Positions 5,865 through 22,841 of a DNA stretch of 22,841 nucleotides are shown here, one piece after another. The DNA comes from Thermosulfurimonas dismutans (GTDB lineage: Bacteria > Desulfobacterota > Thermodesulfobacteria > Thermodesulfobacteriales > Thermodesulfobacteriaceae). The translations under genes and the position numbers were made by a program. Each line of letters starts with the position of its first letter. Positions within the stretch are counted from its first letter, which is position 1. The stretch is from positions 1 through 22,841 of the forward strand of contig NZ_LWLG01000022.1 of the NCBI RefSeq assembly GCF_001652585.1. The letters are read 5' to 3'. Under the pieces are notes generated by a model. That model saw only the letters and a program-made list of their open reading frames with translations, searched no databases and was not told the origin of the DNA.

Positions 5865-5907
5865 AAAGAGCGTTCCGTTCAAACGAGATCGGAGGGGAGG
5901 TACGAAA

Positions 5908-6659: not shown

Positions 6660-7850
6660 ATGAAAGAAGAGGTTTACCCCTGGCAAAGAAGGCTAGTATT
6701 ACTCATTATGTTTTTGTTGGTGGTTCTGAATGCTTCTTGTTCCTATTTCTTGCCTCAATCTGGTCCTTCTACTTTCGGCATAAAAAAAATTTCCCTCGAT
6801 CAAAGATTAGGTATTGAGAAATATGTCACTTTAGTGAAGTTGAACCCCCGAATCATCCTGGCCTTTCCAGATGTCAAGATCTTTTGGACCAAAGATTTGG
6901 AAGGTTTTGTGGTTGGTAGGTATTCTCCGATAATAGACACGGGGGATGTTCTGGAAATATTCGTATATGAATCTCCTCCCCCACTACTTTTCAGTTCGGC
7001 TTCCATTTTGGGCATCCAGCAGAACGAGGTGGTGGCCTTTCGCATCCCTCCACAAATTGTGGATGAAAACGGGTATATTCTGGTTCCCTTTGCGGGCCGA
7101 ATAAAGGCTAAGGGCAAAAGGCCCGAAGAAGTCGCTCAATCCATAGCGGCCAAACTTGCGCGAAAAGCGAACAATCCCCAGGTAGTGGTCAAGTTGTCTG
7201 GGTTCAATTCCTCTTACGTCACCGTCTTTGGAGAGGTAAGGGAAAGCAGGAAGGTGCCCCTCACTTATTCCAACTTCAGGCTTCTCGACGCCCTGGCTTC
7301 CGTAGGAGGGGTGACCTCACCCATAAACAAGACTCTGGTTCAGATCGACCGAAAAGGGAAGACCATACGGTTGCCTCTGGAGGAAGTCATAAGGGACCCT
7401 AAACTGAATCTGAATCTCCAACCCGGTGATGTGATAACTGTGGTTTATAAGACCCAGTCGGCGGTCTTTCTGGGAGCCTCCGGCCGCAATATGGAGCTGG
7501 AATTCGAGGCCAGGGGAATAAACCTTTCGCAGGCCCTGGGAAGGGTTGGAGGGCTCCAGGACGACAGGGCCCACGCCAAGGGACTTTTCATTTTCCGGCT
7601 TGAAGATAAGGACGTTTTACGTAAAATAGGGATCAAACCGAAAGCGGTAGCTATGGGGGGTAAGATACCGGTAATCTACAATGTAGATCTTTCCGACCCT
7701 GCTTCTTTCCTCATCCTCAAAAATTTTTATTTAAAAGACGGAGATATTGTGTATATAGCCACGGCTCCTGCCGTGCAACTACAGAAGTTCTTGCGGGTAA
7801 TTTCGCCCATAATTTCCGACATTTTTATGATAGATCGGCTTTCGAAGTAG
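6660..7850 (+). CDS. Outer-membrane polysaccharide export protein (OPX family; Wza/KpsD-like)
   Basis: N-terminal signal sequence ends in the lipobox-like LVVLNASC. Poly_export-like segment: GDVLEIFVYE ... ILVPFAGRIKAKGKRPEEVAQSIAAKL. Repeated SLBB-like segments: VTVFGEVRESRKVPL ... LLDALASVGG; LQPGDVITV; LSQALGRVGG ... GDIVYI. Confidence 0.85.
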   Translation: MKEEVYPWQRRLVLLIMFLLVVLNASCSYFLPQSGPSTFGIKKISLDQRLGIEKYVTLVKLNPRIILAFPDVKIFWTKDLEGFVVGRYSPIIDTGDVLEIFVYESPPPLLFSSASILGIQQNEVVAFRIPPQIVDENGYILVPFAGRIKAKGKRPEEVAQSIAAKLARKANNPQVVVKLSGFNSSYVTVFGEVRESRKVPLTYSNFRLLDALASVGGVTSPINKTLVQIDRKGKTIRLPLEEVIRDPKLNLNLQPGDVITVVYKTQSAVFLGASGRNMELEFEARGINLSQALGRVGGLQDDRAHAKGLFIFRLEDKDVLRKIGIKPKAVAMGGKIPVIYNVDLSDPASFLILKNFYLKDGDIVYIATAPAVQLQKFLRVISPIISDIFMIDRLSK

Positions 7851-7885: not shown

Positions 7886-8764
7886 ATGAAAGGTGTGGTT
7901 CTGGCCGGGGGCTCGGGTACCAGGTTGTACCCGGTTACCAAGTGCATCAACAAACATCTATTGCCCGTCTATAACAAGCCCATGATTTATTATCCGCTTT
8001 CGGTGCTCATGCTGGCAAGGATAAGAGAGATCATCCTGGTGGTCAATCCGGAAGACGAAGGGGTATATCGAGAACTCCTTTCCGATGGTTCTCAATTGGG
8101 GATGAGCATCAGTTACGCTATTCAAGGCAATCCCGGTGGGCTGGCTCACGCCCTTCTTTCGGCGGAAGAGCTGGTCCAGGGAGACAATGTGTGTGTGCTC
8201 CTCGGGGACAATATCTTTTTCGGGCACGGCCTTACGGAAATGGTAAACGAAGCCCGGAGGGAAATTGAAGAACATGGCGGGGCTTACATTTTTGGCTATT
8301 ACGTCCATGATCCTGAAAGGTACGGAATAGTTGAGTTCGATGAGGAGGGAAGGGCTATATCCCTGGAGGAGAAACCCAAGAAGCCGAAATCCCACTACGC
8401 CGTGGTAGGGCTTTACTTTTACGATCCAACGGTCTTTGAAAAGGCCAGAAAGGTGAAACCTTCCAAAAGAGGGGAAATGGAAATCACCTCGGTCAACGAA
8501 AAGTACCTCAAAGAAGGGAAACTCAGAGTGAAGCGTTTGGGGCGCGGTTTTGCCTGGTTCGACGCCGGAACCCACGACAGCTTTTTGGATGCCGGGAAAT
8601 TTGTGTCCACTATAGAGAAGAAGGCCGGTCTGATGGTGGGCTGTATCGAAGAGATAGCCTACCGAAACGGATGGATAGACAAGAAACAACTCAAAGAACT
8701 GGCCAAATCTATGGAAAAGACGGATTACGGAAAGTATCTTCTGGAAATCGCCAAAGGGGGCTAA
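7886..8764 (+). CDS. rfbA: Glucose-1-phosphate thymidylyltransferase
   Basis: [18 protein letters not shown] (G-x-G-T-R-L), [29 protein letters not shown]. The 292-aa size is typical. A strong SD (GAGGGGGG) lies upstream. Confidence 0.95.
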
Positions 8765-8766
8765 AA

Positions 8767-9333
8767 ATGCCTTTTACGTTCACTCGTTTGGAGATACCCG
8801 ATGTGATCCTGATCGAACCGAAGGTTTTCGGCGATGAAAGGGGGTTTTTCCTGGAAACCTACAAGGCTTCGGAGTTCAGGGCCAACGGGATATCCTATGA
8901 TTTTGCTCAGGACAACCATTCCCGGTCTCAGAAAGGAGTTTTGAGGGGGCTTCACTATCAGCTTGAGCCCATGGAGCAGGGAAAGCTCGTGAGGTGTATC
9001 AGGGGCAGGATATGGGACGTAGCGGTGGATATAAGGAAGGGCTCTCCTTGGTTCGGAAAGTGGGTAGCGGCGGAGCTTTCGGGGGAAAACAAGCTTATGC
9101 TCTGGATCCCGCCGGGTTTTGCCCACGGTTTCGTGGCCCTGGAAGACGGAACGGAGATCCTTTACAAGGTCACCAAGGAATATGCCCCGGAGCTCGACCG
9201 GGGGATAATCTGGAACGATCCGGATCTGGCTATAACCTGGCCGGTGGAAAACCCGATTCTTTCCGAAAAAGACAGTCGTCTTCCCAATCTTAAAGAAGCC
9301 GAGATCAATTTCGTTTACGGGGGGAAAAAATGA
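8767..9333 (+). CDS. rfbC: dTDP-4-dehydrorhamnose 3,5-epimerase
   Basis: Start set at ATG 8767, 2 nt after the rfbA stop and preceded by AAAGGGGG. The longest-ORF start at 8671 lies inside rfbA. Motifs: FGDERGFFLETY, RGLHYQ, KLVRCIRGRIWDVAVDIR, GFAHGF. 188 aa. Confidence 0.93.
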   Translation: MPFTFTRLEIPDVILIEPKVFGDERGFFLETYKASEFRANGISYDFAQDNHSRSQKGVLRGLHYQLEPMEQGKLVRCIRGRIWDVAVDIRKGSPWFGKWVAAELSGENKLMLWIPPGFAHGFVALEDGTEILYKVTKEYAPELDRGIIWNDPDLAITWPVENPILSEKDSRLPNLKEAEINFVYGGKK

Positions 9334-10349
9334 GGATTCTGGTTACGGGGGGGGCGGGTTTCATAGGAAGCGACCTGGTAAGGAGCCTTACGAGGGACGG
9401 TTGCGGGATTTCCGTGGTGGACAAGCTTAATTACGCCGGGGATCTAAGGCGTCTTGAGGAGGCGAGGGATAGGATCAATTTTTATCAATTGGACATCACC
9501 GATGAAAAAGGCCTCCGGGAGGTCTTCGAGAAAGAAAAACCGGAGGTAGTAGTCCACTATGCAGCCGAGACCCATGTGGACCGAAGCATACTCGATCCGG
9601 ACGTTTTCGTGAAGGCCAACGTTATCGGAACTCTGAATCTGCTCAAACTTTCCTTGAAACACGGAGTCAGGAAGTTCGTGCATATTTCGACAGATGAGGT
9701 TTACGGAGAACTTCCCTTGGATAGCGAATCGAAGTTTACGGAGGATTCCCCTCTCCAACCCAATTCTCCTTATTCGGCAAGCAAGACCTCGGCGGAAATG
9801 CTGGTGAGGTCTTTCGTGGAAACGTACGATCTTCCGGCGGTAATCGTAAGGGCTTCTAATGCCTATGGGCCGTGGCAGTATCCCGAAAAGCTGATTCCAC
9901 TTTCCATCGCCAGACTTCTTTCAGACGAAAAGATCTCCGTTTACGGAACGGGACAGAACGTCCGCACGTGGCTTTTCGTGGAAGATTTCACGGAAGCGGT
10001 CCTGAAAATCATCGAGAAAGGAGAAAAGGGCGAAATCTATAATGTTGGAAGTGCCGAGGAGAAAAAAAACATCGAGGTGGTAAGAAAGCTTCTGGAACTG
10101 CTGGACAAGTCCGAGGACTTTATAGAGTTTGTGCCCGACAGACCCGGGCACGATCTTCGATACGCAGTGGACACCACCAAAATAGAGAGAGAGCTTGGCT
10201 GGCGGGCGAAGGTAGATTTCGAGGAGGGGATGAGAAGAACCGTGGAGTGGTATCTGGATAATCGAGACTGGCTTTTTGAGAAAAAGAAAGAGGTCGAGAC
10301 CTTCGTCAATCAACTAAGGAAGGAGTTCGAAAGATGGGCCTCAAGATAG
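9330..10349 (+). CDS. rfbB: dTDP-glucose 4,6-dehydratase
   Basis: GGAGFIGS Rossmann motif, STDEVYG, catalytic YSASK, RPGHDLRYA. ATGA overlap with rfbC. Confidence 0.95.
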   Translation: MRILVTGGAGFIGSDLVRSLTRDGCGISVVDKLNYAGDLRRLEEARDRINFYQLDITDEKGLREVFEKEKPEVVVHYAAETHVDRSILDPDVFVKANVIGTLNLLKLSLKHGVRKFVHISTDEVYGELPLDSESKFTEDSPLQPNSPYSASKTSAEMLVRSFVETYDLPAVIVRASNAYGPWQYPEKLIPLSIARLLSDEKISVYGTGQNVRTWLFVEDFTEAVLKIIEKGEKGEIYNVGSAEEKKNIEVVRKLLELLDKSEDFIEFVPDRPGHDLRYAVDTTKIERELGWRAKVDFEEGMRRTVEWYLDNRDWLFEKKKEVETFVNQLRKEFERWASR

Positions 10350-11197
10350 CCCTTTTCGGGGCCGGCGGCCAGCTTGGAAGCGATCTGGTCAAAATCTGTC
10401 CTTCGGAAGTGGAGCTCGTGCCCTTAACCCGCAAAGAAGTAGATGTCACGGACAGGGGGCAAGTATTGGAGGTCCTTCGGAATATCAAGCCGGATCTGGT
10501 ATTGAACGCCACCGCCTACGTCAAGGTGGACCAAGCGGAAGATGAGGTCGAGGCCGCCTTTGCGGTCAATGCCGCGGGGGTCAGAAATCTGGTGGAGGGA
10601 TGTCTTGATACGGGTAGCGTGCTTTTGCACGTAAGCACAGACTATGTGTTTGACGGCGGAAAACTCGATGCCCGAGATCCCTATACGGAGGAGGATCCTG
10701 AGAACCCCATAAACATTTACGGTTTGTCCAAATATGCCGGCGAGGTCATAGTTCGAAACTATCTCGAGAGGTTTTACATCGTTCGGGTGGCTAGTCTCTA
10801 CGGGAAGGCCGGGGCCAGCGGAAAAGGTGGAAACTTCGTTTATACCATTCTGCGCAAAGCCCGTGCGGGCGAACCCCTAAGGGTGGTAGACGATATCTTT
10901 ATGTCTCCCACTTACACCCTGGATGCGGCGCACAAAATATGGGAGATAGTCCTTGAAGAACGTCCCTATGGTCTGTATCACCTTACCAACTCAGGGTACT
11001 GCAGCTGGTACGAATTTACGAAAAAAATTCTTGAATACGCAAGACTGGACACAGACCTCAAGCCCATAAAACACACGGAGTTCAAGACCAAAGCCCGGAG
11101 GCCGCTCTGGAGCCCCTTGCGAAGCGTAAAAGGAATAACTATGCGGAGCTGGCAGGAAGCTCTCGAGGCCTTCATTTCTGAAGTGACATGCCGGTAG
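10334..11197 (+). CDS. rfbD: dTDP-4-dehydrorhamnose reductase
   Basis: GAGGQLGS, STDYVFDG, YGLSKYAGE (Y-x-x-x-K). 287 aa. Overlaps rfbB by 16 nt. Confidence 0.9.
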   Translation: MGLKIALFGAGGQLGSDLVKICPSEVELVPLTRKEVDVTDRGQVLEVLRNIKPDLVLNATAYVKVDQAEDEVEAAFAVNAAGVRNLVEGCLDTGSVLLHVSTDYVFDGGKLDARDPYTEEDPENPINIYGLSKYAGEVIVRNYLERFYIVRVASLYGKAGASGKGGNFVYTILRKARAGEPLRVVDDIFMSPTYTLDAAHKIWEIVLEERPYGLYHLTNSGYCSWYEFTKKILEYARLDTDLKPIKHTEFKTKARRPLWSPLRSVKGITMRSWQEALEAFISEVTCR

Positions 11198-12144
11198 GTG
11201 TCTTCTCCAGGCAGATCCTGAAAAACGTCCCCCACCTGGAAGTGTTCCTTGAGGATTCGGTGGTGTATAAACCCAAGGGGCCCGAGGGACTTTCGGCCGT
11301 GGCCGGATGGGGATACAAGAGCACGGCCCGAAAGGCCATGCAGAAGGCCAGGGAGTGGAGGCTCCCGTACTTGGCCCTGGAAGACGGTTTTCTCAGGTCC
11401 GTGGGTCTTGGCCACGAGGCTCCTCCCCTTTCTTTGATCGTGGATCCAGTGGGCATTTATTACGATGCCACAAGGCCGTCCCTTCTCGAAAACCTATTGA
11501 ATTTTGGAGGATGGGAAACTCCGGAACTCATGGATCAGGCTGAAAGGGCCCTCAAACTGATAAGGGACCACAAGATAAGTAAGTACAACCGGGGAAAACC
11601 CGTGCCTCGAGGATATTTCACCCCTTACCGAGAAAGGGTCCTCTTGATAGATCAGACCTATGGAGACATGTCCGTAAGGCTCGGGCTGGCCGATGAAGAT
11701 ACCTTTCGGGAGATGTATTTCGCAGCTCTGGAGGAGAATCCGGGGGCCGAGATCTACGTAAAGGTTCATCCGGAGGTCATAGTCGGTAGAAAAAAGGGCT
11801 ATCTCGCGCGGATGAAACTGCACAGGAGCGTCAAAGTCATCCGGGAGGAGTTCAATCCCGTGGATTTGCTTTCTCACTTCGATAGGATATACACCGTATC
11901 CTCTCAAATGGGGTTCGAGGGGCTGATGCTGGGCAAGGAGGTAATCTGTTTCGGCATGCCCTTCTATGCGGGCTGGGGGCTTACGCGGGACGGGAAGAGA
12001 TGCGAAAGGCGGAAGAGGCGGAGGACGCTTTTGGAACTCTTTGCGGCTGCCTACCTTCTTTATCCCCGCTACATAAACCCCGCCACCGGCAAGCCGGGAA
12101 ATATTTTTGATGTGATAAACCATTTGATTGGAGGGAAAGGATAG
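11188..12144 (+). CDS. kpsC: Capsule biosynthesis protein, single-domain KpsC-like (putative beta-Kdo transferase family)
   Basis: AGWGYKSTARKA ... LPYLALEDGFLRSVGLG ... PPLSLIVDPVGIYYDATRPS, LLIDQTYGDMSV, VKVHPE, YTVSSQMGFEGLMLGK, FYAGWGLT. These are colinear, as I recall it, with the N-terminal domain of KpsC. At 318 aa it is one domain, not the two-domain ~670-aa form. Overlaps rfbD by 10 nt. Confidence 0.8.
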   Translation: MPVGVFSRQILKNVPHLEVFLEDSVVYKPKGPEGLSAVAGWGYKSTARKAMQKAREWRLPYLALEDGFLRSVGLGHEAPPLSLIVDPVGIYYDATRPSLLENLLNFGGWETPELMDQAERALKLIRDHKISKYNRGKPVPRGYFTPYRERVLLIDQTYGDMSVRLGLADEDTFREMYFAALEENPGAEIYVKVHPEVIVGRKKGYLARMKLHRSVKVIREEFNPVDLLSHFDRIYTVSSQMGFEGLMLGKEVICFGMPFYAGWGLTRDGKRCERRKRRRTLLELFAAAYLLYPRYINPATGKPGNIFDVINHLIGGKG

Positions 12145-14006
12145 TGATCAAAAGTTTTTTCAAAATTCTTCTTTTCAGGTTTTTGTTTCTGGATACCGTG
12201 GCCTTCTATGGGAAGGACCTGAAGAAGCTCGTATCCGTTTCACGGGAGGACGGAGGAGCGACTCTGGTCTTCGAAAGACTGTTGAGCAGGTGCTTCTCTC
12301 GAGGGGACTTCCTGCTCAAGATAACCCTTCCTCCTCATACCGGGATCAGGTTGCTCAAGCTTTCTATAGATTACGGCTCTGGATCTTTCGAAGAGGTGCA
12401 TCAAATACACTTGAACCTCTTCGGGCGTTTCGACACCGTTGTCCATTTTGAGCGCCCTCCCGCAGGTATAAAGATCTGTCCGGTTGAGACCTCGGGAAAA
12501 GATATCTCCATAGAAAGGCTCGTCATAAAGCGCCTAAAAGGCGGCGAAGTCCAGTCTGCAAAGGAGACAATAAGCTCCGCAGTTTCGGCTTTCCCCGCGG
12601 AGGAAGGTTCCGCTGCGGTTTTCGATCCCCAGAAGTCCAAGGCTGTCCATCTTCCTGACAGATTTCATTTTGCCGTGGACAAGTGTCTGTATGTTCCGGA
12701 TGTCGGGTTCATGGTTGTGGGTTGGTTTTTCAGTCCTTCTTCTCGGATGAGTATAACGGCTCTTCGTTTTTCCGTTGACGGCCGGGAGATCTCTTCGGAT
12801 TTGAATAAGATGGTTAGATTCAAGCGCAAAGACGTGTATGAGAATTACAAAGACATTTACAGAAATATGGAAATAGATACTGGTTATTTCATGCTCATTC
12901 CTTTCAAAGATAAAATTGACGGTTTCAATCGGTTAAACCTGGAAATCTTTTTGGGAGAGGAAAGTCATTCTTTAGAGATGAGCAAGCAGGAAGTCGAAAA
13001 AATTCCTTTGGACATGAGGATAGTCCTAAACAAAACTTACGAACTCTGCGGGCATGCTGTCTCCAGGATCAAGCTTCCTCATCTGTTTGAGGTCATGCAT
13101 GAAGTTTTTTCTTCTAAAAATACGGGTTTTTCTGAAAATATTGCTCCGGAATACAGAAATTTTGGTATGGTGTCTGATGATCCAGAAATCAGTCTGATAA
13201 TCCCTCTCTATGGCAGATTTGATTTTTTGAAACATCAGCTCGCACATTTTTGTCGGGATCGAATTTTTAAAGATAGAAGGATAGAGATTATCTATGTTAT
13301 AGATGATCCCCAGATAATAGAAGATACTTTGAACTCTTGTGAATGGATTTACAGATTGTTTGCATTACCTTTCAGATTGGTCTGGTATAATCGCAATCTT
13401 GGATTTGCCGGTGCCAACAATGTAGGGGTCAAAATTGCAAAGGGCAAGTATGTGGTTCTTATGAATTCAGACGTTATTCCTAAAGAAAGTGGATGGATCG
13501 AAAAATTACACGCAAAGTTTAGTGATTTACCGGATGCCGGGGTTGTTGCTCCTACTCTTCTTTATTTTGACGGAACCATCCAGCATGTTGGAATGTATTC
13601 TTCCTTTCGTCCGGAGTATCCCGGCCTTCTGTTCAATCTTCACTATTATAAGGGTATGTTCCTGGATTTGAGTGATTTTCCCGAACACATAGAGGTTCCT
13701 CTTCTCACGGGGGCTTTGATGTTTCTTCGCAAAGACGATTATCTCAAGGTTGGAGGATTCGACGAAAGTTTCGTATTTGGTGATTTTGAGGATAGTGATT
13801 TTTGTCTGAAGATGAAGAAGCTGGGGTATAAATTTTATATTTTACCTCACGTTCAATTGTATCATCTGGAGAGACAGTCCCAGAATCTCATAACACAGTC
13901 AATGAATTATAGACACTTTGTTACTTTATACAATTCTTATATATATACTAAAAGGGTTCTTGAAAATGGATTGCTAGAAGAAATCAATAGAGAGGTTCTT
14001 GTATGA
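12144..14006 (+). CDS. Family-2 glycosyltransferase with a long non-catalytic N-terminal region
   Basis: GTG start overlaps the kpsC-like stop (TAGTG) and follows GGAGGGAAAGG. GT2 domain from ~aa 348: ISLIIPLYGRFDFLKHQL ... IEIIYVIDDP ... NLGFAGANNVG ... LMNSDVIP ... FGDFEDSDFCLKMKKLGYKFYILPHVQLYHLE. The N-terminal ~340 aa carries two accessory modules (see findings). Confidence 0.85.
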   Translation: MIKSFFKILLFRFLFLDTVAFYGKDLKKLVSVSREDGGATLVFERLLSRCFSRGDFLLKITLPPHTGIRLLKLSIDYGSGSFEEVHQIHLNLFGRFDTVVHFERPPAGIKICPVETSGKDISIERLVIKRLKGGEVQSAKETISSAVSAFPAEEGSAAVFDPQKSKAVHLPDRFHFAVDKCLYVPDVGFMVVGWFFSPSSRMSITALRFSVDGREISSDLNKMVRFKRKDVYENYKDIYRNMEIDTGYFMLIPFKDKIDGFNRLNLEIFLGEESHSLEMSKQEVEKIPLDMRIVLNKTYELCGHAVSRIKLPHLFEVMHEVFSSKNTGFSENIAPEYRNFGMVSDDPEISLIIPLYGRFDFLKHQLAHFCRDRIFKDRRIEIIYVIDDPQIIEDTLNSCEWIYRLFALPFRLVWYNRNLGFAGANNVGVKIAKGKYVVLMNSDVIPKESGWIEKLHAKFSDLPDAGVVAPTLLYFDGTIQHVGMYSSFRPEYPGLLFNLHYYKGMFLDLSDFPEHIEVPLLTGALMFLRKDDYLKVGGFDESFVFGDFEDSDFCLKMKKLGYKFYILPHVQLYHLERQSQNLITQSMNYRHFVTLYNSYIYTKRVLENGLLEEINREVLV

Positions 14007-15211
14007 AATTTTTCATCATCTCTCATGGTCATCCGGAAATTACCAAAGGTGGAGGAGAGCTTGCCGCATATTCTCATTATAAAGGACTGCTTAAGGAGGG
14101 GCATGAAGCCTATTTTCTGGCCAGAGCTCCTGAAAAATACCTGCATCTTGGCACCCAGATAATAGCTTTCAGACCTCGGGAATATCTTTTCCCTGCGGCC
14201 CCGGACCTCTTCAATCTCTTTTCTCACATAGATCTGGGGGAAGACTCTCCTCTGATCACTCTCCTGAAAGAGCTGAAACCGGACGTCGTTCATTTTCATC
14301 ATTATTTTTACATAGGAGTTGATGCCATATATGCTATTAAAAGGTCTTTTCCTGATACCAAGATTGTTATGACTTTGCATGAATACATAGCTATCTGTCT
14401 TCATAACGGACAAATGATCAAACCTGATTTTTCTCTATGTTATAAATACAGCCCTCGCGACTGCAATGAGTGCTTCCCTCAATTTTCTCCTGAAAATATA
14501 TTTTTAAGAGAAATGTATATCAAAAATATGTTTGGTTATGTTGATCTTTTTATTTCTCCAAGCCATTTTTTGAAAAGTAGGTATGTCGAATGGGGCATTC
14601 CTCAGGAAAAGATTGTTGTTTTAGAGAACGGCCTTCCTGAAGGGGAAAGGGTTCCACCAAGACCTGCGAAAGGGGTAAGGGGGAGGTTCGCATATTTCGG
14701 CCAGATCAATCCTTACAAGGGAGTTGATTTTTTGATAGAGACTTTTTCGCTTCTTCCCAGATCTATAAAACAGAAAGTTAAGCTGGAGATATACGGAACG
14801 TGGCATCCGGATCAGAGCTTCAAAGAGAGGGTTGAAAAATTGATTAAAAGGAATAGGGATGTGGTAAGATATCATGGCCCTTATGAGAACTCCGAGCTCG
14901 GTAGCCTAATGTATAATATAGATTGGGTGATAATGGGTTCTATATGGTGGGAAAATTCTCCTCTGGTGATCCAGGAAGCATTCAAATATGGGAGGCCCGT
15001 TATCTGTCCGGACATAGGAGGTATGGTGGAGAAGGTAAAGCATGGCTACGGCGGATTGAACTACAGGGCAAGGGACCACGTATCTCTGACCGATTTGATT
15101 GCGGATATAGTAGAGGGAAAATACGACTATGAAGATATCCTGGCCAAAATGCCTTCCTACAAGCCACTGAAGCAGTTTGTGAGAGAGTATCTTGATCTGG
15201 TTGCTACTTAA
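14003..15211 (+). CDS. GT-B fold glycosyltransferase (family 1/GT4-like)
   Basis: ATGA overlap with the upstream GT2. The N-terminus MKFFIISHGHPEITKGGGE is typical of GT4. C-terminal E-x7-E-like region: ENSPLVIQEAFKYGRPVICPDIGGMVE. Confidence 0.85.
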   Translation: MKFFIISHGHPEITKGGGELAAYSHYKGLLKEGHEAYFLARAPEKYLHLGTQIIAFRPREYLFPAAPDLFNLFSHIDLGEDSPLITLLKELKPDVVHFHHYFYIGVDAIYAIKRSFPDTKIVMTLHEYIAICLHNGQMIKPDFSLCYKYSPRDCNECFPQFSPENIFLREMYIKNMFGYVDLFISPSHFLKSRYVEWGIPQEKIVVLENGLPEGERVPPRPAKGVRGRFAYFGQINPYKGVDFLIETFSLLPRSIKQKVKLEIYGTWHPDQSFKERVEKLIKRNRDVVRYHGPYENSELGSLMYNIDWVIMGSIWWENSPLVIQEAFKYGRPVICPDIGGMVEKVKHGYGGLNYRARDHVSLTDLIADIVEGKYDYEDILAKMPSYKPLKQFVREYLDLVAT

Positions 15212-15226
15212 AGGGGACTTCGAATC

Positions 15227-16456
15227 ATGGAGAACAAGGGCAAGCAGAGTTCGAAACTCGCGCCAAAAGATAGACCGGTTTTTCTGATAACCACAGGCAG
15301 AACAGGAAGCACTTTTCTTCAGAGATTGCTCAATTGCCATAAAAACCTTGTGATATGGGGAGAACATTTTGGCTTTCTGAACAGTCTTGCCGCGGCGTAT
15401 GTAGCCATGAAGAGTCCGAACCAGAACCTGTATCCCAGAACTCCGGAAGAAAATAGAGGGCCAGACATTCTTCTTCCCACCCTCAGATCGCCTGACATTG
15501 CAATAGAGTGGGCCAATCCTTGGTCGTTCCGGGAATACAGAAATTTTGTAAAAGAATTCATAGAGAAATATTTTGCTTCTAGGCTCGATTCTCCTCACAA
15601 GAGATGGGGATTTAAGGAGATAAGATATAACAACCTCCAAGTTTTGAATATGCTCAAAGACATTTATCCCGGAGGCAGATTTATATTTTTGAAGAGAAAG
15701 CCGGAGGAAGTTATTAGAAGCAAAATTTTTGCCTTTATAAAAGAAGATAGATGGGCAAAAATGTCAGACAGAATGAAGAGACAGCATATCCGGAAGTTAT
15801 ATGATGAACTCAAATCTCACTACTCTGTTTATGATGCTTTCGTAAAATCCAATCATAATATCTCTACGATAGTTATATATGAGGAACTTGTAGCATATCC
15901 CAGAAAGATTATTAATCATCTCTTGCGTTTGCTTGGTTTATCTGGTGATACCTACGACTGGCAACTTGCTGAAAAGATTATAAAAAACGTTTTGTGCAAG
16001 ACCAAAAGAGATCACGAGGTTTATAAACTCATAAATGAAGTCTTGAATAACCACAAAAAGGTAGAAATAAAGGGACATCTTGATGTGGTAGATGAAACAC
16101 GTTGTAGTGGCTGGGCTTTTGATAAATTCAATAAAGACTACCCCGTGAGTGTGGTTGTTTCCGTAAACGGAAAGGTGGTGGGCAAAACTCTGGCTCATGC
16201 TTACCGGGAAGATCTCAAGAAAAAAAACATTCATCCCACCGGTCATTGCGGTTTTGTCTTGATGTGGAAAAATCTCGGATTAGAGCTGAAGGCTGGAGAC
16301 AGGGTGGAGGTATTTGTGGAGGGGGCTAATGTTCCCCTACCCGGTTCTCCGATGGTGTATGAGCCACGAGCTGTGAAGGAGGACGACGTTTCTGTGGTAA
16401 AAAGAGAGGTAGATATAAAAACCGATTTCTCATATGCTAACATAAATTTGTCTTAA
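15227..16456 (+). CDS. PAPS-dependent sulfotransferase-family protein with a C-terminal accessory module
   Basis: 5'-phosphosulfate-binding-loop-like TTGRTGSTFLQRLL (aa 22-35). 3'-phosphate-binding-like FIFLKRKPEEVIRS (aa 152-165). The C-terminal ~90 aa (nt 16073-16342) is homologous to the N-terminal repeats of the next gene. Confidence 0.8.
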   Translation: MENKGKQSSKLAPKDRPVFLITTGRTGSTFLQRLLNCHKNLVIWGEHFGFLNSLAAAYVAMKSPNQNLYPRTPEENRGPDILLPTLRSPDIAIEWANPWSFREYRNFVKEFIEKYFASRLDSPHKRWGFKEIRYNNLQVLNMLKDIYPGGRFIFLKRKPEEVIRSKIFAFIKEDRWAKMSDRMKRQHIRKLYDELKSHYSVYDAFVKSNHNISTIVIYEELVAYPRKIINHLLRLLGLSGDTYDWQLAEKIIKNVLCKTKRDHEVYKLINEVLNNHKKVEIKGHLDVVDETRCSGWAFDKFNKDYPVSVVVSVNGKVVGKTLAHAYREDLKKKNIHPTGHCGFVLMWKNLGLELKAGDRVEVFVEGANVPLPGSPMVYEPRAVKEDDVSVVKREVDIKTDFSYANINLS

Positions 16457-16533
16457 GTATGAGAAGCATTTGTAAAATTGCCAGAGATAATTAAAAGAAA
16501 CAACGAAAAAATTTTAAGAAGGGGGGCGAATTA

Positions 16534-19500
16534 GTGATCCAGGGGCATTTCGATAGAGTAGATGGCCTTTACGTCCACGGATGGGCTTTTAATCCCGAAA
16601 ATCCAGAAGAAAGGGTAGAGGTGGTAGTTCTTGTAGATGGAAAGCCTGTGGCAGAGGGAGTTGCTGATCAGTTTAGAGAGGATCTTAAAGAAGCCGGTAT
16701 TGGAGATGGCGGGTATGCGTTTGTAATTAAGCTTCCTAATGAGATTGCTGATGGGAAGGAACACGAAATAAGGGTAGTTGTGAAGAACACGGGGAATGAT
16801 TTAGAAAACAGTCCGCAAATAGTTATATTTCAGCAATTAGAAGATAGTTATATAGGTCATCTAGATTCAGTGGATGGATTACTTGTTACAGGCTGGACAT
16901 ATAACAAGGCTAATCCAGAAGAAAGGGTAGAGGTGGTAGTTCTTGTAGATGGAAAGCCTGTGGCAGAGGGAGTTGCGGACCAATACAGGGAAGATTTAAA
17001 GCAGGACGGTATAGGAGATGGAAAGCATGCTTTCAAGATAAAACTTCCTGATGAACTTGCTGATGGGGAGGTACATGAGATAAAGGTAGTTGTGAATTCA
17101 TATCCCAATTTCAAAGTAGAACTCGCAGAAAAAAAATATATTTGCATTAAAAGTGATATCATATTTGATGAAGAATTTTACTTAGAGCAAGCTAGAAGAA
17201 AAGATATTTTGGTAAATGAAACACCAATACTGCATTATTTAAAAAATGGTTGGAAATTAGGCTTAGACCCTCATCCTTTATTTGACACATGGTACTATTA
17301 TGAAGTTAATAACCCATCAAGAGAAGTTTGCCCTCTAGTTTCGTATTTACTTGACAGAAAGTTTTTCCAGTGTTCTCCTTTTGTAGATGAAGCATATCTT
17401 AATCATATGCTTCACATAAATAAGATATCCCCTGATAAAACACTAAGGAATCTTGCTTTTGCTATAAAGCAAGGTTTGCCTCCTTCTTTCCTTCATCCAC
17501 ATATATTTGATCCAGTTATTTCTTTTTTAAGAATGAATTTGAGCTTAGCGATTGATTATACCGACATTCTTGATGTTATAAAAACAAAGCCAAGCATAGA
17601 AGATTTGATTGTTTTGTTGAGGTTTTTGCGTTCGCAAAGAATATATAATTTTTCTGATGATGAAAGTCCTATAATAAGTGTTGTAATTCTTAATTATAAG
17701 AAGCCTATTATGACTATTTTATCTGCCCTGAGTGTTCTTATTGCATTGAAAGATGTGCCACACGAGATTATAATAGTAGATAATGAATCTGATCGTTTTT
17801 TTACTGAAATTTTATACCGCTATTTACAAAAGCAAAAAAATGTGAAGATCATTGCCTCCAAGAATAATCTTTTCTTTGGGGAAGGAAATAATATAGCAAT
17901 AGATAGAGTACAAGGAAGATATGTTTTATTTCTAAATAACGATGCGTTTATTGGTCCTAATATAAAGTATTTATTGGATATTTTAGAAGAAAAAGAAGAT
18001 ATAGGGGCTGCTTCTCCGATTATTATTAATCAAGATTTTAGAATATCAGAAGTTGGAGGAATTGTTAGTCCATTAGGAGATGTTTTGCAAATAGGTAAAT
18101 TTATGAACTTTGAGAAAACATTATGGAATTCTCTGAACAATATGGCATTTATAGAAGTTGATTATGCATCAGCAGCATGTTTGATGGTTAGGGCAGAGAT
18201 ACTAAAAAAATACGGTGGATTCGACTATATATATGAACCCTTTTATTACGAAGATACAGATTTATGCTTAAGAATAAAATGTTTGGGGTATAAAATTGTA
18301 TGTATCCCTAAAGCAATTTCTTTGCATATTGAAAATTTTACAACTAAAGAGTTTTTGAAAGATAAATGGGGCACTGTTGTCCAGAATTCTAAGGAAAAGT
18401 TCTTTAATAGATGGGTATTTAAAAATAAAGAATATAAACCTGTTGAAATAAAATATTCCCAAAGAAAGAAAAGAAAAACAATTGCTTTGTATACACCCTT
18501 TCCAATTACTATTGGAGGAGGCGAAAACTATTTCTTGTCTATGGGAGCAGCTTTGTCTAAAATAGCCAATATAGTTTTTATTACAGAAGAATACACATCA
18601 AGAACAAGAATATCTTTTGTCTGTAGAGATTTGGGTATAGAACAATTTGAATTTGAAGTAATGAAGAGAAATGAGGTTGGAAAGTACTATTTTGATCTTG
18701 CTATAGTAATGGGTAATGAGATCGTGCCTTCTTGGATTCCTCCTGCCCAAAAAATAATTTACCTTTGTCAATTCCCCTTTCCTCTGTACCATGTTAAATA
18801 TCATGATTTCAGCTCTTATGATAAAATTGATTTATATATAGCATATTCTTTCTTCGTAAAAGAAAATATACAGAAAGAAATTGAAAAATATTCACTACCA
18901 GAAAAACCTATTGAGGTGATTTATCCGCCTAGTAACTTGCCTAATTATACAGTTGATGAAATTTTGGAAAAAAAGTTGCGGAATAAAAATAAAAAAATGT
19001 TTATAAGTATAGGTAGATTTCAATCACACGGTCATAATAAGCGACAGGATGTAATAGCTAAGATACTAAGTGAAGCTTCTACAAAGTTACCGATAGAGGG
19101 GTATATTTTTGGCGGTTTGCGAGAGAGTCCAGAAGATAAAGAATTTTTTCAAAAAGTGAGATCATATCAAAATAAAGGTGTTCTTCTAGTGAAAGCTAAT
19201 GTTGATAGAGATACAATTGAGTCTCACTTATTAAGATCACATTTCTATATACATGCTACAGGTTTAGGTATTAATCCTGGAGTAGAACCATATAAATGTG
19301 AACATTTCGGAATAACTTTAGTGGAAGCTATGGCATATGGGTGTATTCCTTTAGCATACAAATGTGGTGGACCAAAGGAAATACTTGAAAGTCACAATGT
19401 GGGATATGTATTTAGTTCAGAAGATGAATTGAAAAATCTTGTATTCGATTTGATCGAGATGGATATTGAATCAGAAGAATATTGGATCACAGTTGAGAAA

Positions 19501-19605
19501 TGTATGAAAGTAGCAGAAAATTTTTCAAGAGAAAATTTTTATAAAAAAGTAAGCAATATAATAGAAAAATTAATGTCAACAAGTAATTTTAACGGGTTGC
19601 TATAA
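16534..19605 (+). CDS. 1023-aa bifunctional glycosyltransferase (two N-terminal accessory repeats + GT2 domain + GT4-type GT-B domain); candidate polymerase
   Basis: GTG start follows AAGGGGGG. aa 4-190: two tandem ~104-aa repeats. aa ~210-290: FDEEFYL ... HYLKNGWKLGLDPHPLFD motif region. GT2 (aa ~379-605): ISVVILNYKKP ... EIIIVDNESD ... FLNNDAF ... YYEDTDLCLRIKCLGYKIVC. GT4 (aa ~648-1005): IALYTPFPITIGGGENY ... EHFGITLVEAMAYGCIPLAYKCGGPKE. Confidence 0.85.
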   Translation: MIQGHFDRVDGLYVHGWAFNPENPEERVEVVVLVDGKPVAEGVADQFREDLKEAGIGDGGYAFVIKLPNEIADGKEHEIRVVVKNTGNDLENSPQIVIFQQLEDSYIGHLDSVDGLLVTGWTYNKANPEERVEVVVLVDGKPVAEGVADQYREDLKQDGIGDGKHAFKIKLPDELADGEVHEIKVVVNSYPNFKVELAEKKYICIKSDIIFDEEFYLEQARRKDILVNETPILHYLKNGWKLGLDPHPLFDTWYYYEVNNPSREVCPLVSYLLDRKFFQCSPFVDEAYLNHMLHINKISPDKTLRNLAFAIKQGLPPSFLHPHIFDPVISFLRMNLSLAIDYTDILDVIKTKPSIEDLIVLLRFLRSQRIYNFSDDESPIISVVILNYKKPIMTILSALSVLIALKDVPHEIIIVDNESDRFFTEILYRYLQKQKNVKIIASKNNLFFGEGNNIAIDRVQGRYVLFLNNDAFIGPNIKYLLDILEEKEDIGAASPIIINQDFRISEVGGIVSPLGDVLQIGKFMNFEKTLWNSLNNMAFIEVDYASAACLMVRAEILKKYGGFDYIYEPFYYEDTDLCLRIKCLGYKIVCIPKAISLHIENFTTKEFLKDKWGTVVQNSKEKFFNRWVFKNKEYKPVEIKYSQRKKRKTIALYTPFPITIGGGENYFLSMGAALSKIANIVFITEEYTSRTRISFVCRDLGIEQFEFEVMKRNEVGKYYFDLAIVMGNEIVPSWIPPAQKIIYLCQFPFPLYHVKYHDFSSYDKIDLYIAYSFFVKENIQKEIEKYSLPEKPIEVIYPPSNLPNYTVDEILEKKLRNKNKKMFISIGRFQSHGHNKRQDVIAKILSEASTKLPIEGYIFGGLRESPEDKEFFQKVRSYQNKGVLLVKANVDRDTIESHLLRSHFYIHATGLGINPGVEPYKCEHFGITLVEAMAYGCIPLAYKCGGPKEILESHNVGYVFSSEDELKNLVFDLIEMDIESEEYWITVEKCMKVAENFSRENFYKKVSNIIEKLMSTSNFNGLL
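16543..17103 (+). repeat. Intragenic tandem duplication, period 312 nt (104 codons), two copies
   Basis: Copy 1 is ~16543-16791 and copy 2 is ~16855-17103. A 65-nt block is perfectly identical (16600-16664 = 16912-16976, encoding NPEERVEVVVLVDGKPVAEGVA). The flanks are clearly more diverged (roughly 70% identity by eye). Confidence 0.9.
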
Positions 19606-19853
19606 TGAGCGAGAATAAACTTTAAATATACATAGAACCTCATAAAACTGGAAATGCCTTTATTCAGAAATTTTTCCTTGATTACATGGATGAATTATTA
19701 AAGCTTGGAGATGGCTATCTAAACGAATTGATTTACTTATATGGACATTATGAATTTGTTGAACTATTAAAAGTGAGTGAATATAATGGATTGCTTCCTT
19801 TTGTAAATAGTATCTTAGCGCTGGACACTTTTTTTGGCAAGAAGATTGATTAA
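19605..19853 (+). pseudogene. Remnant of a sulfotransferase-like gene: in-frame TAA at codon 7 and truncated after ~80 codons
   Basis: ATG 19605 overlaps the stop of the upstream gene (TAATG). Reading: MSENKL-TAA(19623-19625)-IYIEPHKTGNAFIQKFFLDYMDELLKLG ... KKID-TAA(19851-19853), all in one frame. IEPHKTGNAFIQKFF resembles the PAPS-loop regions HIGWPKTGTSAIQHF (20625 gene) and TTGRTGSTFLQRLL (15227 gene). It is far too short for a complete enzyme. Confidence 0.5.
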
Positions 19854-20624
19854 GGGGAGTTGGATTATATTTGCTTAAAAGTTTATTTGTTTTTTGGTTA
19901 GGGAAAATTAAGATTTATTTGGCAATAGCTTGTCACGAGTGATATTATGACAAGAAGGTCAGCAACTTATCGATGGTAATGATGTATGACCCGATCCTGA
20001 ATATAGGGATACTAGTACAGGTTTTAGATTTGAACCATAAGGGTGGATTTTTCATTTTTCTGACAGGGGGTTATTTTAGAAAAGATTTAAATGATAGGCG
20101 AGCTGCAAGTTTTGCATTAGTGACTTTGGGTATGGAAAGTGAAGCAGATGATATGATAGAGATATATAGAGAGGTGGAGAATAGAGAGGATGTTTTACAA
20201 TATGGAGAGCAATGGATTTGAGGTTAGCCAGATGCGTTTTAGAGGTAATACGAAGATGGAAATGTTATTTTATGTGGTAGCGATATGTTAATATCTATTG
20301 GAGGTTATAGGTAAAATTAAGTAGAAGATGAGAGGTGATGGCAGGGATAGTGTATTTTTATGGAGATTAAGGTAATTAAAGAAGATATTAAGAGGATTTT
20401 GGTTAAAGAAGTGAACCGGATTTGTGAGATATTCTTAGAATGTTATAGAAGGTTAAGAAATAAGTTGTTTTTTATGTTTCTAGTAAAAGGTGTCTGCTAG
20501 TATGTTGCGTTTTAGAGAAATCATTTTGAGTTAATAAACATATTGATGAAAAAGTAGACGATATTTTAGAGAGAGTTTTTAATATAGTTGAATACTTGAT
20601 TTTAAAGATTTTGGAGAATAAGAA

Positions 20625-22025
20625 ATGGCATTTGAAAAAGTTAAATTTATTTTCCATATAGGATGGCCTAAAACTGGTACTAGCGCTATTCAACATTTTT
20701 GCTTTAAAAATAGAGAGAAAATTGCAAAGTTATACCAAATTTTATACCCAAAAACAGGAAAAATGCATTTTGAACATCACTATTTTGTTGTGGCTTTAAC
20801 TTCAAAACAAAATATAAACAGAGTGGTTTATAACTTTTATAAAGATCATAAAGAAATGTTTGCTGATTTGACAGATGAAATGAATTCTGTTAGAAAAGAT
20901 GATATAAAAAAGATTTTAATAAGTAGTGAATTTATGTGCGGTCCTAGTTTCGTTAAAGAATTGTCTGAAATAAAGAAAAAAATAAACGAATTTAAAATAA
21001 ATATTGACAAACTAATTGCCTATGTAAGACGTCAAGATTTGTTGTTAGATAGTCATTACAGGCAGCATATGAAAGAAATTTGGTTTTTTTCTGATTTTAT
21101 TTCATTTGCCAGGAAGAATATGTGTTTAGTGGATTTTTTTAATATACTTAACACTTGGGCTACTGTTGTAGATAAATCTAATTTTTTGATCAGAGTATAC
21201 GACAGAAAACTTTTTCCAGAAGGAAATATTATACTTGACTTTTTACAGCTACTTGGGATAGAGATGTCAGAAGCCAGAAATTTCAAAGCAGATATAAATC
21301 CGTCACTTTCGCACCTTTCAGCTCTTGCTTTCAGAAAATTTAAATTTAAATACGATTTTACCAAAGATGAACATCCCAAATTATTGAAATTTCTATTTGA
21401 TATAGATAGAAGAGAAGGAAGCTTTTTGAAAACATTTCTAAGTTTAGAAGAAAGAATAGAGTTGCTTAGAGAATTTAAAGAATCTAATGATTTGTTATTT
21501 AAAGAATATTTTAATTCTTCTAAGAATTTATTTGCTATTTCTGAAGAAGAAATAGTATTTTATAAAAAACAGGATAAAATAGAGAAAGAGAGGATAGATG
21601 AAGCTATAGAAAATAGATTCAAAGAATTAGAAAGATATTATTTTAAAATTACTAAAAGACCTTCAAGGCGTGAATTTATATATTTTATTGAAAAATTTGA
21701 TGAAAAAACTATAAGTGGTTGGATTATAGATCTTATAGATCCACCAGCAAAACTTATTCTTAAAGTAAATGATATTTCTATTTGCGAATTTGAAACAAAT
21801 CACCCTCGCAAAGATGTACTAAATGCATTTCCTGATTTAGGGTATTTAAACTGTGGTTTTGAGCTTAACTTGCTGAATATTAATTTGCCGAAAAGTATAT
21901 TAAAATTAGGAAATGATAGAAGGATAAAGTTAAGTCTAGTTCATAAACGGAGCAATATAGAATTGCGAAATGTTGAAATTAATTCAAACAGTTTGAAAGA
22001 GCTATTAAAAATAAGGGTTGTTTGA
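20625..22025 (+). CDS. Sulfotransferase-like protein with a C-terminal accessory module
   Basis: ATG lies 8 nt after GGAG. N-terminal FIFHIGWPKTGTSAIQHF (P-loop-like 5'-PSB region, aa 8-25) and AYVRRQDLLLDSHY (3'-PB-like R-x-x-D-x-x-x-S, aa 132-145). The C-terminal ~90 aa (nt ~21681-21959) shares the G-W / R-x-D-V / G-F pattern of the recurrent module. Confidence 0.65.
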   Translation: MAFEKVKFIFHIGWPKTGTSAIQHFCFKNREKIAKLYQILYPKTGKMHFEHHYFVVALTSKQNINRVVYNFYKDHKEMFADLTDEMNSVRKDDIKKILISSEFMCGPSFVKELSEIKKKINEFKINIDKLIAYVRRQDLLLDSHYRQHMKEIWFFSDFISFARKNMCLVDFFNILNTWATVVDKSNFLIRVYDRKLFPEGNIILDFLQLLGIEMSEARNFKADINPSLSHLSALAFRKFKFKYDFTKDEHPKLLKFLFDIDRREGSFLKTFLSLEERIELLREFKESNDLLFKEYFNSSKNLFAISEEEIVFYKKQDKIEKERIDEAIENRFKELERYYFKITKRPSRREFIYFIEKFDEKTISGWIIDLIDPPAKLILKVNDISICEFETNHPRKDVLNAFPDLGYLNCGFELNLLNINLPKSILKLGNDRRIKLSLVHKRSNIELRNVEINSNSLKELLKIRVV

Positions 22026-22841
22026 TTTTAAATCTAAATGACTTTTTGAAACGGCCTATTAGTCAAGTTAAATTTTTTAATACTTGCAGGAGGATTTGAA
22101 ATAAACTATTGGCCTTTATCTAAAAAGTTTTCCTAAACAGAATGGTAACTTAAAATTTAGTGCTGAACACCTTTGAAATTCGTAAATCATTGAGTAAATA
22201 GATGAGTAAAATTATTCGCTAAGATTAAATTTTTGCTTGACAAGAGATTCTTTACATGTTGAGAAATAAACAGTTAAGTGGAGGGCTACTGAGAAAATTT
22301 TTAAAAAAGATTCGAGAGGATTAAATAAATAATGTCAGACTGTTTGAATATGTGAGGCAATTTACTTGCTTTACGGTCTATAATTTTGAAGTTTTGAGCT
22401 TGCTTATTTATGAAATGATAGTTGAAAATACAGTAAATTGTAATAGCATCGCAGAATCCCTACCATATTGGGCTAAAAACGATAGCCTCTGTAAGAGATT
22501 TATTCGATTTTTGAAAGGAAGATGGATTTAGGAGGGGTAGATTTGTATTTAGAAAGAAATTTTTGTATCTACTTTCTTGGAGTTGCAAGAAAGGATTTAA
22601 ATTTGTTTGGTAATAGATTGTCATGAATGGCATTTTGTTAGCAAAGTTAACAATTTGTTAGCTATAATGCTTTGTGGGCTTATGGCAAATTTGGTCGTAC
22701 CTGTGTTGATCTTGGATTTAAATATTATAGGTAATTCTTCTTTTGATGGGAGAGGATTAATGTTAGACGATATTCATGAAGTTTTAAATTAACCGTTAAG
22801 GAAAGGATTGGCAAATGTAGAAGTGTTAAACTCAACTTTGA

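Follow-up and report, generated by a model that had tools for sequence, protein, structure and literature searches.

A noncatalytic domain of ~95 to 105 residues is present in four copies (a to d), and probably in a fifth (e), in a capsule locus of Thermosulfurimonas dismutans. The stretch of DNA analyzed here (22,841 nucleotides, hereafter referred to as the window) is a whole contig of this bacterium, and the locus that it carries belongs to the type that depends on an ATP-binding cassette (ABC) transporter (KpsE/M/T/D, KpsS/C-like). The domain, below called the module, is an undescribed family of a familiar sort of domain, a beta-sandwich with a generic resemblance to immunoglobulin-like/fibronectin type III–like (Ig/FN3-like) domains. 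The initial annotation of the window had reported one module occurring five times, fused to two glycosyltransferases and to both sulfotransferases of the locus. The homology of copies a to d was upheld, and copy e is a probable member; the identity of the second presumed sulfotransferase, the product of the gene that starts at position 20625, was not supported.

Four copies of one domain and a probable fifth

All five peptides quoted in the initial annotation were located where it had placed them. Copies a and b lie at the N terminus of a bifunctional glycosyltransferase of 1023 amino acids (aa), which is likely the chain-building enzyme (host gene 3; positions 16534-19605, plus strand) and in which Pfam recognizes a family 2 glycosyltransferase domain (GT2) at aa 382-560 and Glycos_transf_1 (GT1/GT4) at aa 808-984. 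Copy a (16537-16824, plus strand) starts from the second residue of the protein (aa 2-97; quoted peptide, aa 4-68, nucleotides (nt) 16543-16737) and scored 117-124 bits with the family hidden Markov model (HMM); copy b (16849-17106, plus strand; aa 106-191; quoted peptide, aa 108-172, nt 16855-17049) scored 98-106 bits. Copy c (16067-16363, plus strand; aa 281-379; quoted peptide, aa 283-347, nt 16073-16267; 66-76 bits) is in the C-terminal part of a 409-aa sulfotransferase (host gene 2; 15227-16456, plus strand; Pfam Sulfotransfer_3, E = 3.6e-16, aa 17-239). The product of this gene is identical to OAQ19869.1/WP_068671779.1, “sulfotransferase [Thermosulfurimonas dismutans],” which is also protein P0123 of the family. 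The initial annotation had regarded a to c as clearly homologous and d and e as more distant. Copies a to c were related by BLASTP at E of ~1e-8 (1.4e-8 over 99 aa for c versus a; 2.9e-8 for c versus b), profiles were needed to detect d, and the signal from e was weaker still.

Copies a and b are 68% identical to each other, compared to 38% for c and a. They are arranged in tandem with a period of 312 nt (104 codons), and the DNA contains a 206-nt direct repeat of 79% identity. A 65-nt tract inside copy a (16600-16664, plus strand) is identical to 16912-16976 inside copy b, while the remainder of the repeat is 63% identical. A perfect tract on such a background suggests that local gene conversion took place recently between the two repeats. 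A 956-aa protein of Caldimicrobium, a close relative of the source bacterium, has the same architecture, GT2 + GT4 with two N-terminal modules.

Copy d (21672-21968, plus strand) comprises aa 350-448, in the C-terminal part of a 466-aa protein (host gene 4; 20625-22025, plus strand), and the peptide quoted for it comprises aa 353-416 (nt 21681-21872). The copy is divergent, with the Gly-rich loop of the module replaced, and pairwise BLASTP comparisons of d with the other copies were not significant. When a narrow profile built from a, b, c, and one database match was used, d and e were the two best non-self matches among 233 six-frame pieces, yet with E values of 1-2. A foreign-only HMM, made from 482-629 instances in the 150 best-scoring proteins, gave d 18.7-19.5 bits (E = 8.6e-6 among the 233 six-frame pieces and 7e-7 among 9 proteins). 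Profile-profile comparison could have shown d and e to be unrelated to the other copies. For d, it revealed a clear relationship: hhalign of the 45-sequence family alignment against the d region returned a probability of 94.9% (E = 4.7e-8, 89 columns). A jackhmmer search started from d alone converged on the whole family, a, b, and c included. Since the foreign HMM, hhalign, and jackhmmer all agree, copy d is a true, divergent member of the family.

The remainder of the protein that carries d was called sulfotransferase-like in the initial annotation; the sole basis for this was an N-terminal PKTGTS P-loop motif, and the assignment was left unconfirmed by our searches. No sulfotransferase model in Pfam or NCBIfam, no other family in these collections, and no PDB chain of any kind matched the 20625 product by sequence or profile, and hhalign of this product against the 15227 enzyme aligned 24 columns only, around PKTGTS (probability of 2.4%). 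What ties the gene to sulfotransferases is proximity and not homology: at one locus of the module family (L001), a Sulfotransfer_3 fragment is found near its homologues, in different open reading frames (ORFs). The N-terminal domain of the 20625 product is 49% identical to that of a homologue from Caldimicrobium. This homologue has a C-terminal extension of its own, which is not related to the module (hhalign P = 0.24), while another homologue, from locus L001, is without any C-terminal extension. Since the closest homologues have either an unrelated extension or none, copy d represents a lineage-specific fusion. The Caldimicrobium extension had appeared module-like by eye; it was rejected on the hhalign result and used as a negative control.

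The probable copy e (12639-12983, plus strand) is internal. It occupies aa 166-280 of a 620-aa GT2 protein (host gene 1; 12144-14006, plus strand; Pfam Glycos_transf_2 at aa 350-485), inside an orphan N-terminal region of 345 aa and upstream of the GT2 domain, which begins at aa 347; the quoted peptide is aa 187-253 (nt 12702-12902). It would be of a divergent subtype like that of the rhizobial protein WgeF (see below), with a 5-residue insertion between its R-K-D-V helix and its G-Y-F strand.

We consider e to be probably a divergent, WgeF-like member of the module family. The alternative is a chance or convergent GW/R-x-D-V/G-Y-F pattern in an unrelated beta-rich region, in which case the locus would have four copies in three proteins. 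Several results leave room for this alternative, which we think unlikely. Copy e fell below standard thresholds: it scored 2.2 bits with the family HMM, and hhalign gave a probability of 22-27% (P = 7e-4 to 9e-4) over 33 columns, from the GW strand through the V-D-G turn. A jackhmmer search from e returned no matches. Since no homologue of the N-terminal 345 aa of this GT2 was found in the protein database (word-indexed search) or in metagenome contigs, no profile could be built for e. On the other hand, when the family alignment was compared by hhalign with 68 overlapping 180-residue segments of the 17 window proteins, the 60 nonmodule segments scored <=12.8 (P >=0.12), while the two segments containing e scored 24, those containing d scored 38-43, and those containing a to c scored 94-178. 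Copy e is thus a clear outlier over the controls.

The signature GW..R.D[LVI]..[GA][FY]....P is matched by 58% of 629 family instances and, in the window, by a, b, and e only; c and d contain GW, R-x-D-[LV], and G-F, with the P absent at the set spacing. The signature was absent from 20,000 shuffles of the GT2 (0/20,000) and had four matches in 1.12 million residues of unrelated ORF pieces, three of which were orthologues of WgeF, so nearly all of the background consists of WgeF domains. Its elements are the most conserved positions of the family, and its gap ranges were set after e had been seen, a post hoc choice that counts on the side of chance; the tests that support e are partly post hoc in general and overlap one another. 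An HMM of the WgeF core ranked e first in the window (E = 0.0012), followed by the ORF with a and b and then by the ORF with d. The internal domain of WgeF was itself aligned by hhalign both to the family (probability of 40%, E = 3e-4, 85 columns) and to e (31%, E = 5e-4, 67 columns), in a consistent register. A single-sequence AlphaFold2 (AF2) model of aa 160-345 of the GT2 was of low confidence, with a pLDDT (predicted local distance difference test) of 46.5, which counts on the side of chance, yet the order of its elements agreed with that in module a: strand, GW strand, V-x-V strand, short strand, helix at R-K-D-V, G-Y-F strand, and two more strands. No sixth copy was detected in the window by profile searches, by the signature, or by hhalign of all 17 window proteins.

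A beta-sandwich outside the named families

The initial annotation had anticipated a beta-sandwich. The AF2 model of copy a, calculated with the 45-sequence alignment, is a seven-stranded beta-sandwich with a short helix at R-E-D-L, after strand 4 (pLDDT, 97.8; predicted TM score (pTM), 0.88). A Foldseek search of the PDB with this model returned generic FN3/Ig-like domains only (best E = 0.0098; TMq, 0.36-0.50; root mean square deviation, 3.5-7.7 Å; 13-17% identity), among them the FN3 domains of GH84C and chitinase A1, the Ig-like sandwich of GH2, and the N-terminal FN3 domain of GH28. In BFVD, an uncharacterized siphovirus protein was recovered that is a real member of the family (E = 3.7e-6, TMq of 0.78, 28% identity). 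Other BFVD matches were FN3, Ig-like, or carboxypeptidase-regulatory-like, including a phage protein with a carboxypeptidase-regulatory domain (TMq of 0.57).

The FN3/Ig-like appendages of GH84C, chitinase A1, GH2, and GH28 resemble the module in that they are beta-sandwiches of ~100 residues on glycan-acting enzymes, often in tandem. They have no sequence relationship to it, however, and are extracellular and attached to hydrolases, whereas the window modules are attached to transferases and should be cytoplasmic, since no signal peptide was seen by inspection in the four host proteins and copy a begins at residue 2. Carboxypeptidase-regulatory-like, PEGA, and Big_7 Ig-like domains are, like the module, seven-strand sandwiches. 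Single modules gave a sub-threshold Pfam match to each of PEGA and Big_7 (E = 0.07-0.11), none of them significant. To our knowledge, the signature elements GW, R-x-D-L, and GxGxGxHGF are not part of the carboxypeptidase-regulatory-like, PEGA, or Big_7 families.

In agreement with the initial annotation, which could not assign the module to a named family, no Pfam-A (models to 2025) or NCBIfam family was found over the module, whether the scan was made with the window proteins, with 70 + 35 family proteins, or with 45 isolated modules at E <=1. We rejected the possibility that a known Pfam domain had escaped detection because of the thresholds, as the 45 isolated modules gave no consistent family even at this cutoff. 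PDB sequence and profile searches with the module produced noise only, and no description of the domain was found in the literature searched.

The family signature can be written as G-x-x-[DE], G-W-[AV]-x-D-x(3)-P, V-x-V, [DG]-G, A-x(3)-R-x-D-L, G-x-G-x-G-x-[HY]-G-F, and P. Weighted conservation, calculated over 629 instances, is highest at G15 (98%), W16 (93%), and F62 (91%), followed by A43 (89%), R47 (86%), [DE]6 (84%), G3 (83%), D49 and G58 (80% each), L50 and G56 (75% each), G61 (74%), and P67 (73%). In strand 2, hydrophobic or small residues occupy positions 13, 15, and 17, and variable, polar residues occupy position 14. Judging by this alternation, as read from the DSSP string of the model, W16 and the often aromatic position 18 would face away from the core. 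The GW..D...P, A...R.DL, and GxGxGxHGF elements should all be located in loops at one end of the sandwich, as deduced from the DSSP strand order. Loops at one sandwich end form the ligand site in loop-site carbohydrate-binding modules (CBMs), C2 domains, and antibodies.

Size, spread, and partners of the family

A profile of a, b, c, and one database match was run with HMMER against all of 1.84 billion cluster representatives (clusters at 50% identity). The number of representatives recovered was 9,815 at E <=1e-3, falling to 3,043 at E <=1e-10 and to 295 at E <=1e-30, and a single protein contained as many as 15 matched stretches. The word-indexed protein search is nearly blind to such a short module, with one match found with copy a and four with the 45-sequence alignment. 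A scan of genomes yielded 80 loci, in Dictyoglomota, Caldimicrobium, ~40 Rhizobiaceae, Acetobacteraceae, Azospirillum, Dyadobacter (Bacteroidota), and a Nitrospirae metagenome-assembled genome, as well as in Conexibacter (Actinobacteria), Saccharibacteria, Acidobacteria, Lyngbya (cyanobacteria), and Lachnospiraceae (Firmicutes). Members of the family are also present in archaea and in one phage.

In the 150 best-scoring proteins, a ranking that is biased to multi-copy proteins, 58 have the module at the N terminus, 40 at the C terminus, 32 at an internal position, and 20 at both ends. The most frequent copy number is 3-4, the highest is 15, and the period is 104 residues; 22 of the 150 proteins consist essentially of modules only. 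The Pfam partners in the 70 best-scoring proteins were GT2 (7), Por_Secre_tail (7), S-adenosylmethionine-dependent (SAM) methyltransferases (5), Laminin_G_2 (4), GT1/GT4 (3), TPR (3), and Peptidase_M23, radical SAM, and Sulfotransfer_3 (2 each); those in 35 genome ORFs were GT2 (13), GT1/GT4 (13), Hint_2 (6), radical SAM (3), Sulfotransfer_3 (2), PhyH (2), and WbsX (1). The varied position of the module and its fusion to many different catalytic domains bear out the view of the initial annotation that it is a mobile accessory domain. Module fusion is independent of catalytic ancestry, to judge from the absence of d in homologues of the 20625 gene and from the identity of c to a (38%), which is no higher than that of rhizobial WgeE to a (41-48%; see below).

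A secreted subgroup is indicated by sorting domains of the type IX secretion system (T9SS) and by Cys, which occupies profile position 10 in 31% of weighted instances. In P0007, P0011, and the Dyadobacter ORF at 3559-7536 of L031, the module is combined with Por_Secre_tail, a T9SS sorting domain, and Laminin_G. A second Cys was seen by eye near the C terminus of the module, and the location of Cys near both module ends suggests disulfide-stabilized extracellular versions.

The composition of the family bears on another possible role of the module, that of an Ig-like structural spacer or a solubility domain, without a specific ligand, which would have been spread by domain shuffling and would only position or stabilize catalytic domains. 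Module-only proteins and arrays of up to 15 near-identical copies are compatible with such a role, as are the generic FN3/Ig/carboxypeptidase-regulatory-like structural neighbors. We regard it as quite unlikely, nevertheless, because W (93%), R (86%), D (80%), G-F (74%/91%), and the Gly-rich loop are kept across phyla and in both cytoplasmic and secreted proteins, beyond the needs of the fold, and because single copies stand at enzyme ends (c and d), where a spacer would be needless.

A stand-alone module in the galactoglucan cluster of rhizobia

The rhizobial member of the family is a protein of 235-242 aa, encoded on pSymB of Sinorhizobium meliloti (together with the adjoining gene, L083 9995-12924; also L004 5944-8915). 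Its gene is preceded by those for a MarR regulator, a type I secretion ATPase/HlyD pair, a calcium-binding protein, a GT2, and a GT4 and is followed by those for a hypothetical protein of 738 aa and another GT4. Since this gene order matches that of the wge (expE) operon of the galactoglucan cluster, the member was identified, by synteny and not by accession, as WgeE (ExpE5, SMb21310). The name WgeE is that used in PMC12542648.

WgeE contains one canonical module (aa ~20-105), which is 41-48% identical to copy a. Since c is only 38% identical to a, the five copies of the window are not recent intra-locus copies, with the exception of the a/b duplication. The module of WgeE is followed by a heptad-like, coiled-coil-like helical stretch and a C-terminal hydrophobic tail (a membrane anchor), and no enzyme domain is present. 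The protein is annotated as a hypothetical or putative membrane protein only, and no reported function of WgeE was found in the literature searched. Similar to the modules of the window, that of WgeE is encoded within a polysaccharide biosynthesis cluster (S. meliloti galactoglucan, exopolysaccharide II); unlike the window hosts, WgeE is a stand-alone 235-aa protein that is membrane-anchored and lacks an enzyme domain. It places a lone module at the cytoplasmic membrane face of a polysaccharide machine. The adjoining gene, wgeF, encodes the 738-aa protein, which is without a Pfam domain and has an internal divergent module (~aa 329-450 of a 763-aa ORF piece in L030).

Possible functions of the module

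The initial annotation had proposed that the module binds glycan or docks the enzymes to each other. We tentatively favor, by analogy, a role of the module as a polymer-recognition (CBM-like) domain. Its nearest functional analogue, on which the mechanism proposed here is modeled, would be the C-terminal domain of Wzt (Wzt_C, PF14524), a noncatalytic beta-sandwich that recognizes a cytoplasmic lipid-linked polymer in an ABC-transporter-dependent glycan pathway (cf. PMC9445017). The Pfam model of Wzt_C had no match in any window protein or in the 45 isolated modules. Wzt_C is a larger jelly-roll, and it sits on the transporter ATPase, whereas the window modules sit on transferases.

According to the proposed mechanism, four enzymes would be kept on the nascent lipid-linked polysaccharide, at the inner membrane, by their modules: the GT2 + GT4 protein by a and b, the GT2 by e, the sulfotransferase by c, and the 20625 enzyme by d. 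The tandem copies would add avidity for a repetitive ligand. Tethering would provide a higher local concentration of the substrate and couple elongation to sulfation before export. An adenosine 5′-phosphosulfate (APS) kinase encoded in the locus would feed the 3′-phosphoadenosine 5′-phosphosulfate (PAPS) pathway, and the finished chain would be exported by the KpsMT-like ABC transporter.

Polymer recognition is favored because the commonest Pfam-annotated partners act on glycans, because tandem multivalency suits a repetitive ligand, and because a family that is found inside as well as outside the cell suits a class of ligand found in both places. In addition, the polar and aromatic conservation exceeds what the fold needs, and the conserved residues appear gathered at one apex of the modeled sandwich. 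Several points weigh against polymer recognition. The clustering at the apex was derived from DSSP strand order alone. The best PDB neighbors are FN3/Ig domains (E >=0.01, TM of 0.4-0.5), many of which are spacers or protein-binding domains and not CBMs, and both arrays of up to 15 copies and module-only proteins (22/150) are typical of inert stalk domains too. Since there are secreted T9SS and Hint-domain members, a role on the cytoplasmic nascent chain cannot be family-wide, and since the Gly-rich loop differs in c, d, and e, a shared ligand for all five copies is not assured.

It is more doubtful whether the module founds a new, very large family of cytoplasmic substrate-tethering domains of polysaccharide biosynthesis, CBM-like but carried by transferases and not by hydrolases, which would recognize the nascent lipid-linked chain and thereby set processivity and couple elongation to sulfation, methylation, or pyruvylation. 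Such a description would cover ABC-transporter-dependent and related pathways, and WgeE would there be a free membrane-anchored factor that holds the chain or determines its length.

The arrangement of family loci and the architecture of WgeE are relevant to protein-protein docking or assembly, the second option of the initial annotation, in which the sandwiches would pair mutually or with a scaffold and build a membrane-associated enzyme complex. In the window, the module is common to four enzymes of a single locus, and at 9 of 81 loci at least two ORFs within ~6 kb carry it. For instance, L001 (9977-17311) contains four such ORFs, among which are interspersed a GT2, WbsX-type glycosyltransferases, and sulfotransferase-like ORFs that are in fragments and appear to be frameshifted, and L054 (Nitrospirae metagenome-assembled genome, 3293-8112) contains three adjacent ORFs with 2, 3, and 4 copies of the module. 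WgeE, with a module, a coiled-coil-like segment, and a membrane anchor, is scaffold-like, and the next gene, wgeF, has a divergent copy; FN3/Ig-like folds, furthermore, often mediate protein contacts. Yet in the remaining 72 of the 81 loci a single ORF within ~6 kb has a detectable module, which argues against obligatory enzyme-enzyme docking, and many proteins of the family are secreted or made of tandem modules only. The five copies of the window are also very divergent (<=38% identity save for a and b), a poor fit to homotypic pairing. We therefore consider docking unlikely. The presence of KpsM/T/E/D-like genes within ~6 kb of family loci was uninformative, with a KpsT-like ATPase found at 5 loci.

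C2-like binding to membranes or lipids, in which loop Asp, Arg, and Trp residues would bind phospholipid or a polyprenyl/lipid anchor and thereby recruit soluble enzymes, seems improbable. In its favor, W, R, and several D residues that are conserved are located in loops that may share one apex, and the host enzymes are soluble by inspection (no transmembrane segment was noticed), yet must act on a lipid-linked polymer. But WgeE has a membrane anchor of its own, secreted T9SS members would have no obvious use for membrane binding, and the module is without Pfam C2-like similarity.

In capsule and O-antigen pathways that depend on an ABC transporter, the way in which soluble transferases remain on a growing chain, and in which modification is coordinated with elongation, is understood in few systems, such as the WbdD/WbdA ruler and the carbohydrate-binding domain of Wzt. 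An add-on domain common to chain-building, methylating, and sulfating enzymes in many phyla would offer a general handle on chain retention and modification. The family comprises ~10,000 clusters at 50% identity and has no Pfam/NCBIfam entry or structure detectable by sequence; its definition would improve the annotation of thousands of regions now called “hypothetical.” While a beta-sandwich on a multidomain transferase is in itself unsurprising, the size of this unannotated family, its bias to biosynthetic over degradative enzymes, and its link to WgeE are noteworthy. The module also provides a hypothesis for WgeE/ExpE5, an uncharacterized gene of a genetically tractable model exopolysaccharide cluster. 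For the engineering of sulfated polysaccharides, it would be of practical value to know whether the module is needed for sulfotransferase targeting.

Organization of the window

The genes for export lie at the left end of the window and include a BexC/CtrB/KpsE-family protein (225-1328) and an ABC-2 permease with its ATPase (1332-2787). The KpsT-like ATPase (2128-2787) is 219 aa in length, and ABC_tran is the only domain shown in it. These genes are followed by a GT2 (2772-4811) and a 329-aa ORF without Pfam or NCBIfam match (4787-5776), both on the minus strand, and then by the APS kinase (5836-6513), a Poly_export/SLBB protein (6660-7850), the dTDP-rhamnose genes rmlA, rmlC, rmlB, and rmlD (7886-11197), and a Capsule_synth (KpsS/KpsC-like) protein (11188-12144), whose gene is next to that of the GT2 with copy e. 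A GT4 (14003-15211) is encoded between this GT2 and the sulfotransferase with copy c.

Two of these genes have similarity to module-bearing proteins outside the module itself. Residues 150-400 of the minus-strand GT2 are homologous to the region located between the modules and the GT2 domain of module-bearing GT2s (L001 ORF 10393-12465, E = 2e-27; also P0139, P0108, P0084, and L008), and this GT2 would appear to be a relative from which the module was lost or in which it was never present. For the 4787-5776 ORF, similarity was found between residues 143-310 and the C-terminal region of P0038 (E = 1e-6), which is 1456 aa in length and has three modules at its N terminus. Degenerate extra copies of the module were sought in both and none was found.

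Among the rml genes, the longest rmlC-like ORF (8671-9333) overlaps the 3′ end of the rmlA-like gene (7886-8764) by 94 nt. The real start of rmlC is probably further downstream, since the Pfam epimerase domain begins at residue 40 of this ORF.

Between the GT2 + GT4 gene and the 20625 gene, a stretch of ~1 kb (19606-20624) has no ORF longer than 82 aa, and its GC skew is very strong, with values reaching 0.7. Within this stretch, a short frame (19644-19742) reads HKTGNAFIQKF, which is similar to the P-loop of the neighboring enzymes (tblastn E = 0.23, not significant). This stretch may be a decayed gene. The final 800 bases (22026-22841) have a G+C content of ~28-31% and ORFs that are all <=61 aa; Rfam and tandem-repeat scans of the window gave nothing relevant, with no RNA family or repeat in 22026-22841.

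The G+C content of the window drops stepwise, from ~50-56% at 7-12 kb (rml and KpsS-like genes) to ~38-45% at 12.7-17.2 kb and to ~25-33% in the remainder. The second of these steps, near 17.2 kb, falls within the 16534 gene, just past module b. The steps could reflect a mosaic or horizontally acquired serotype-specific region or, in part, the amino acid composition of the modules.

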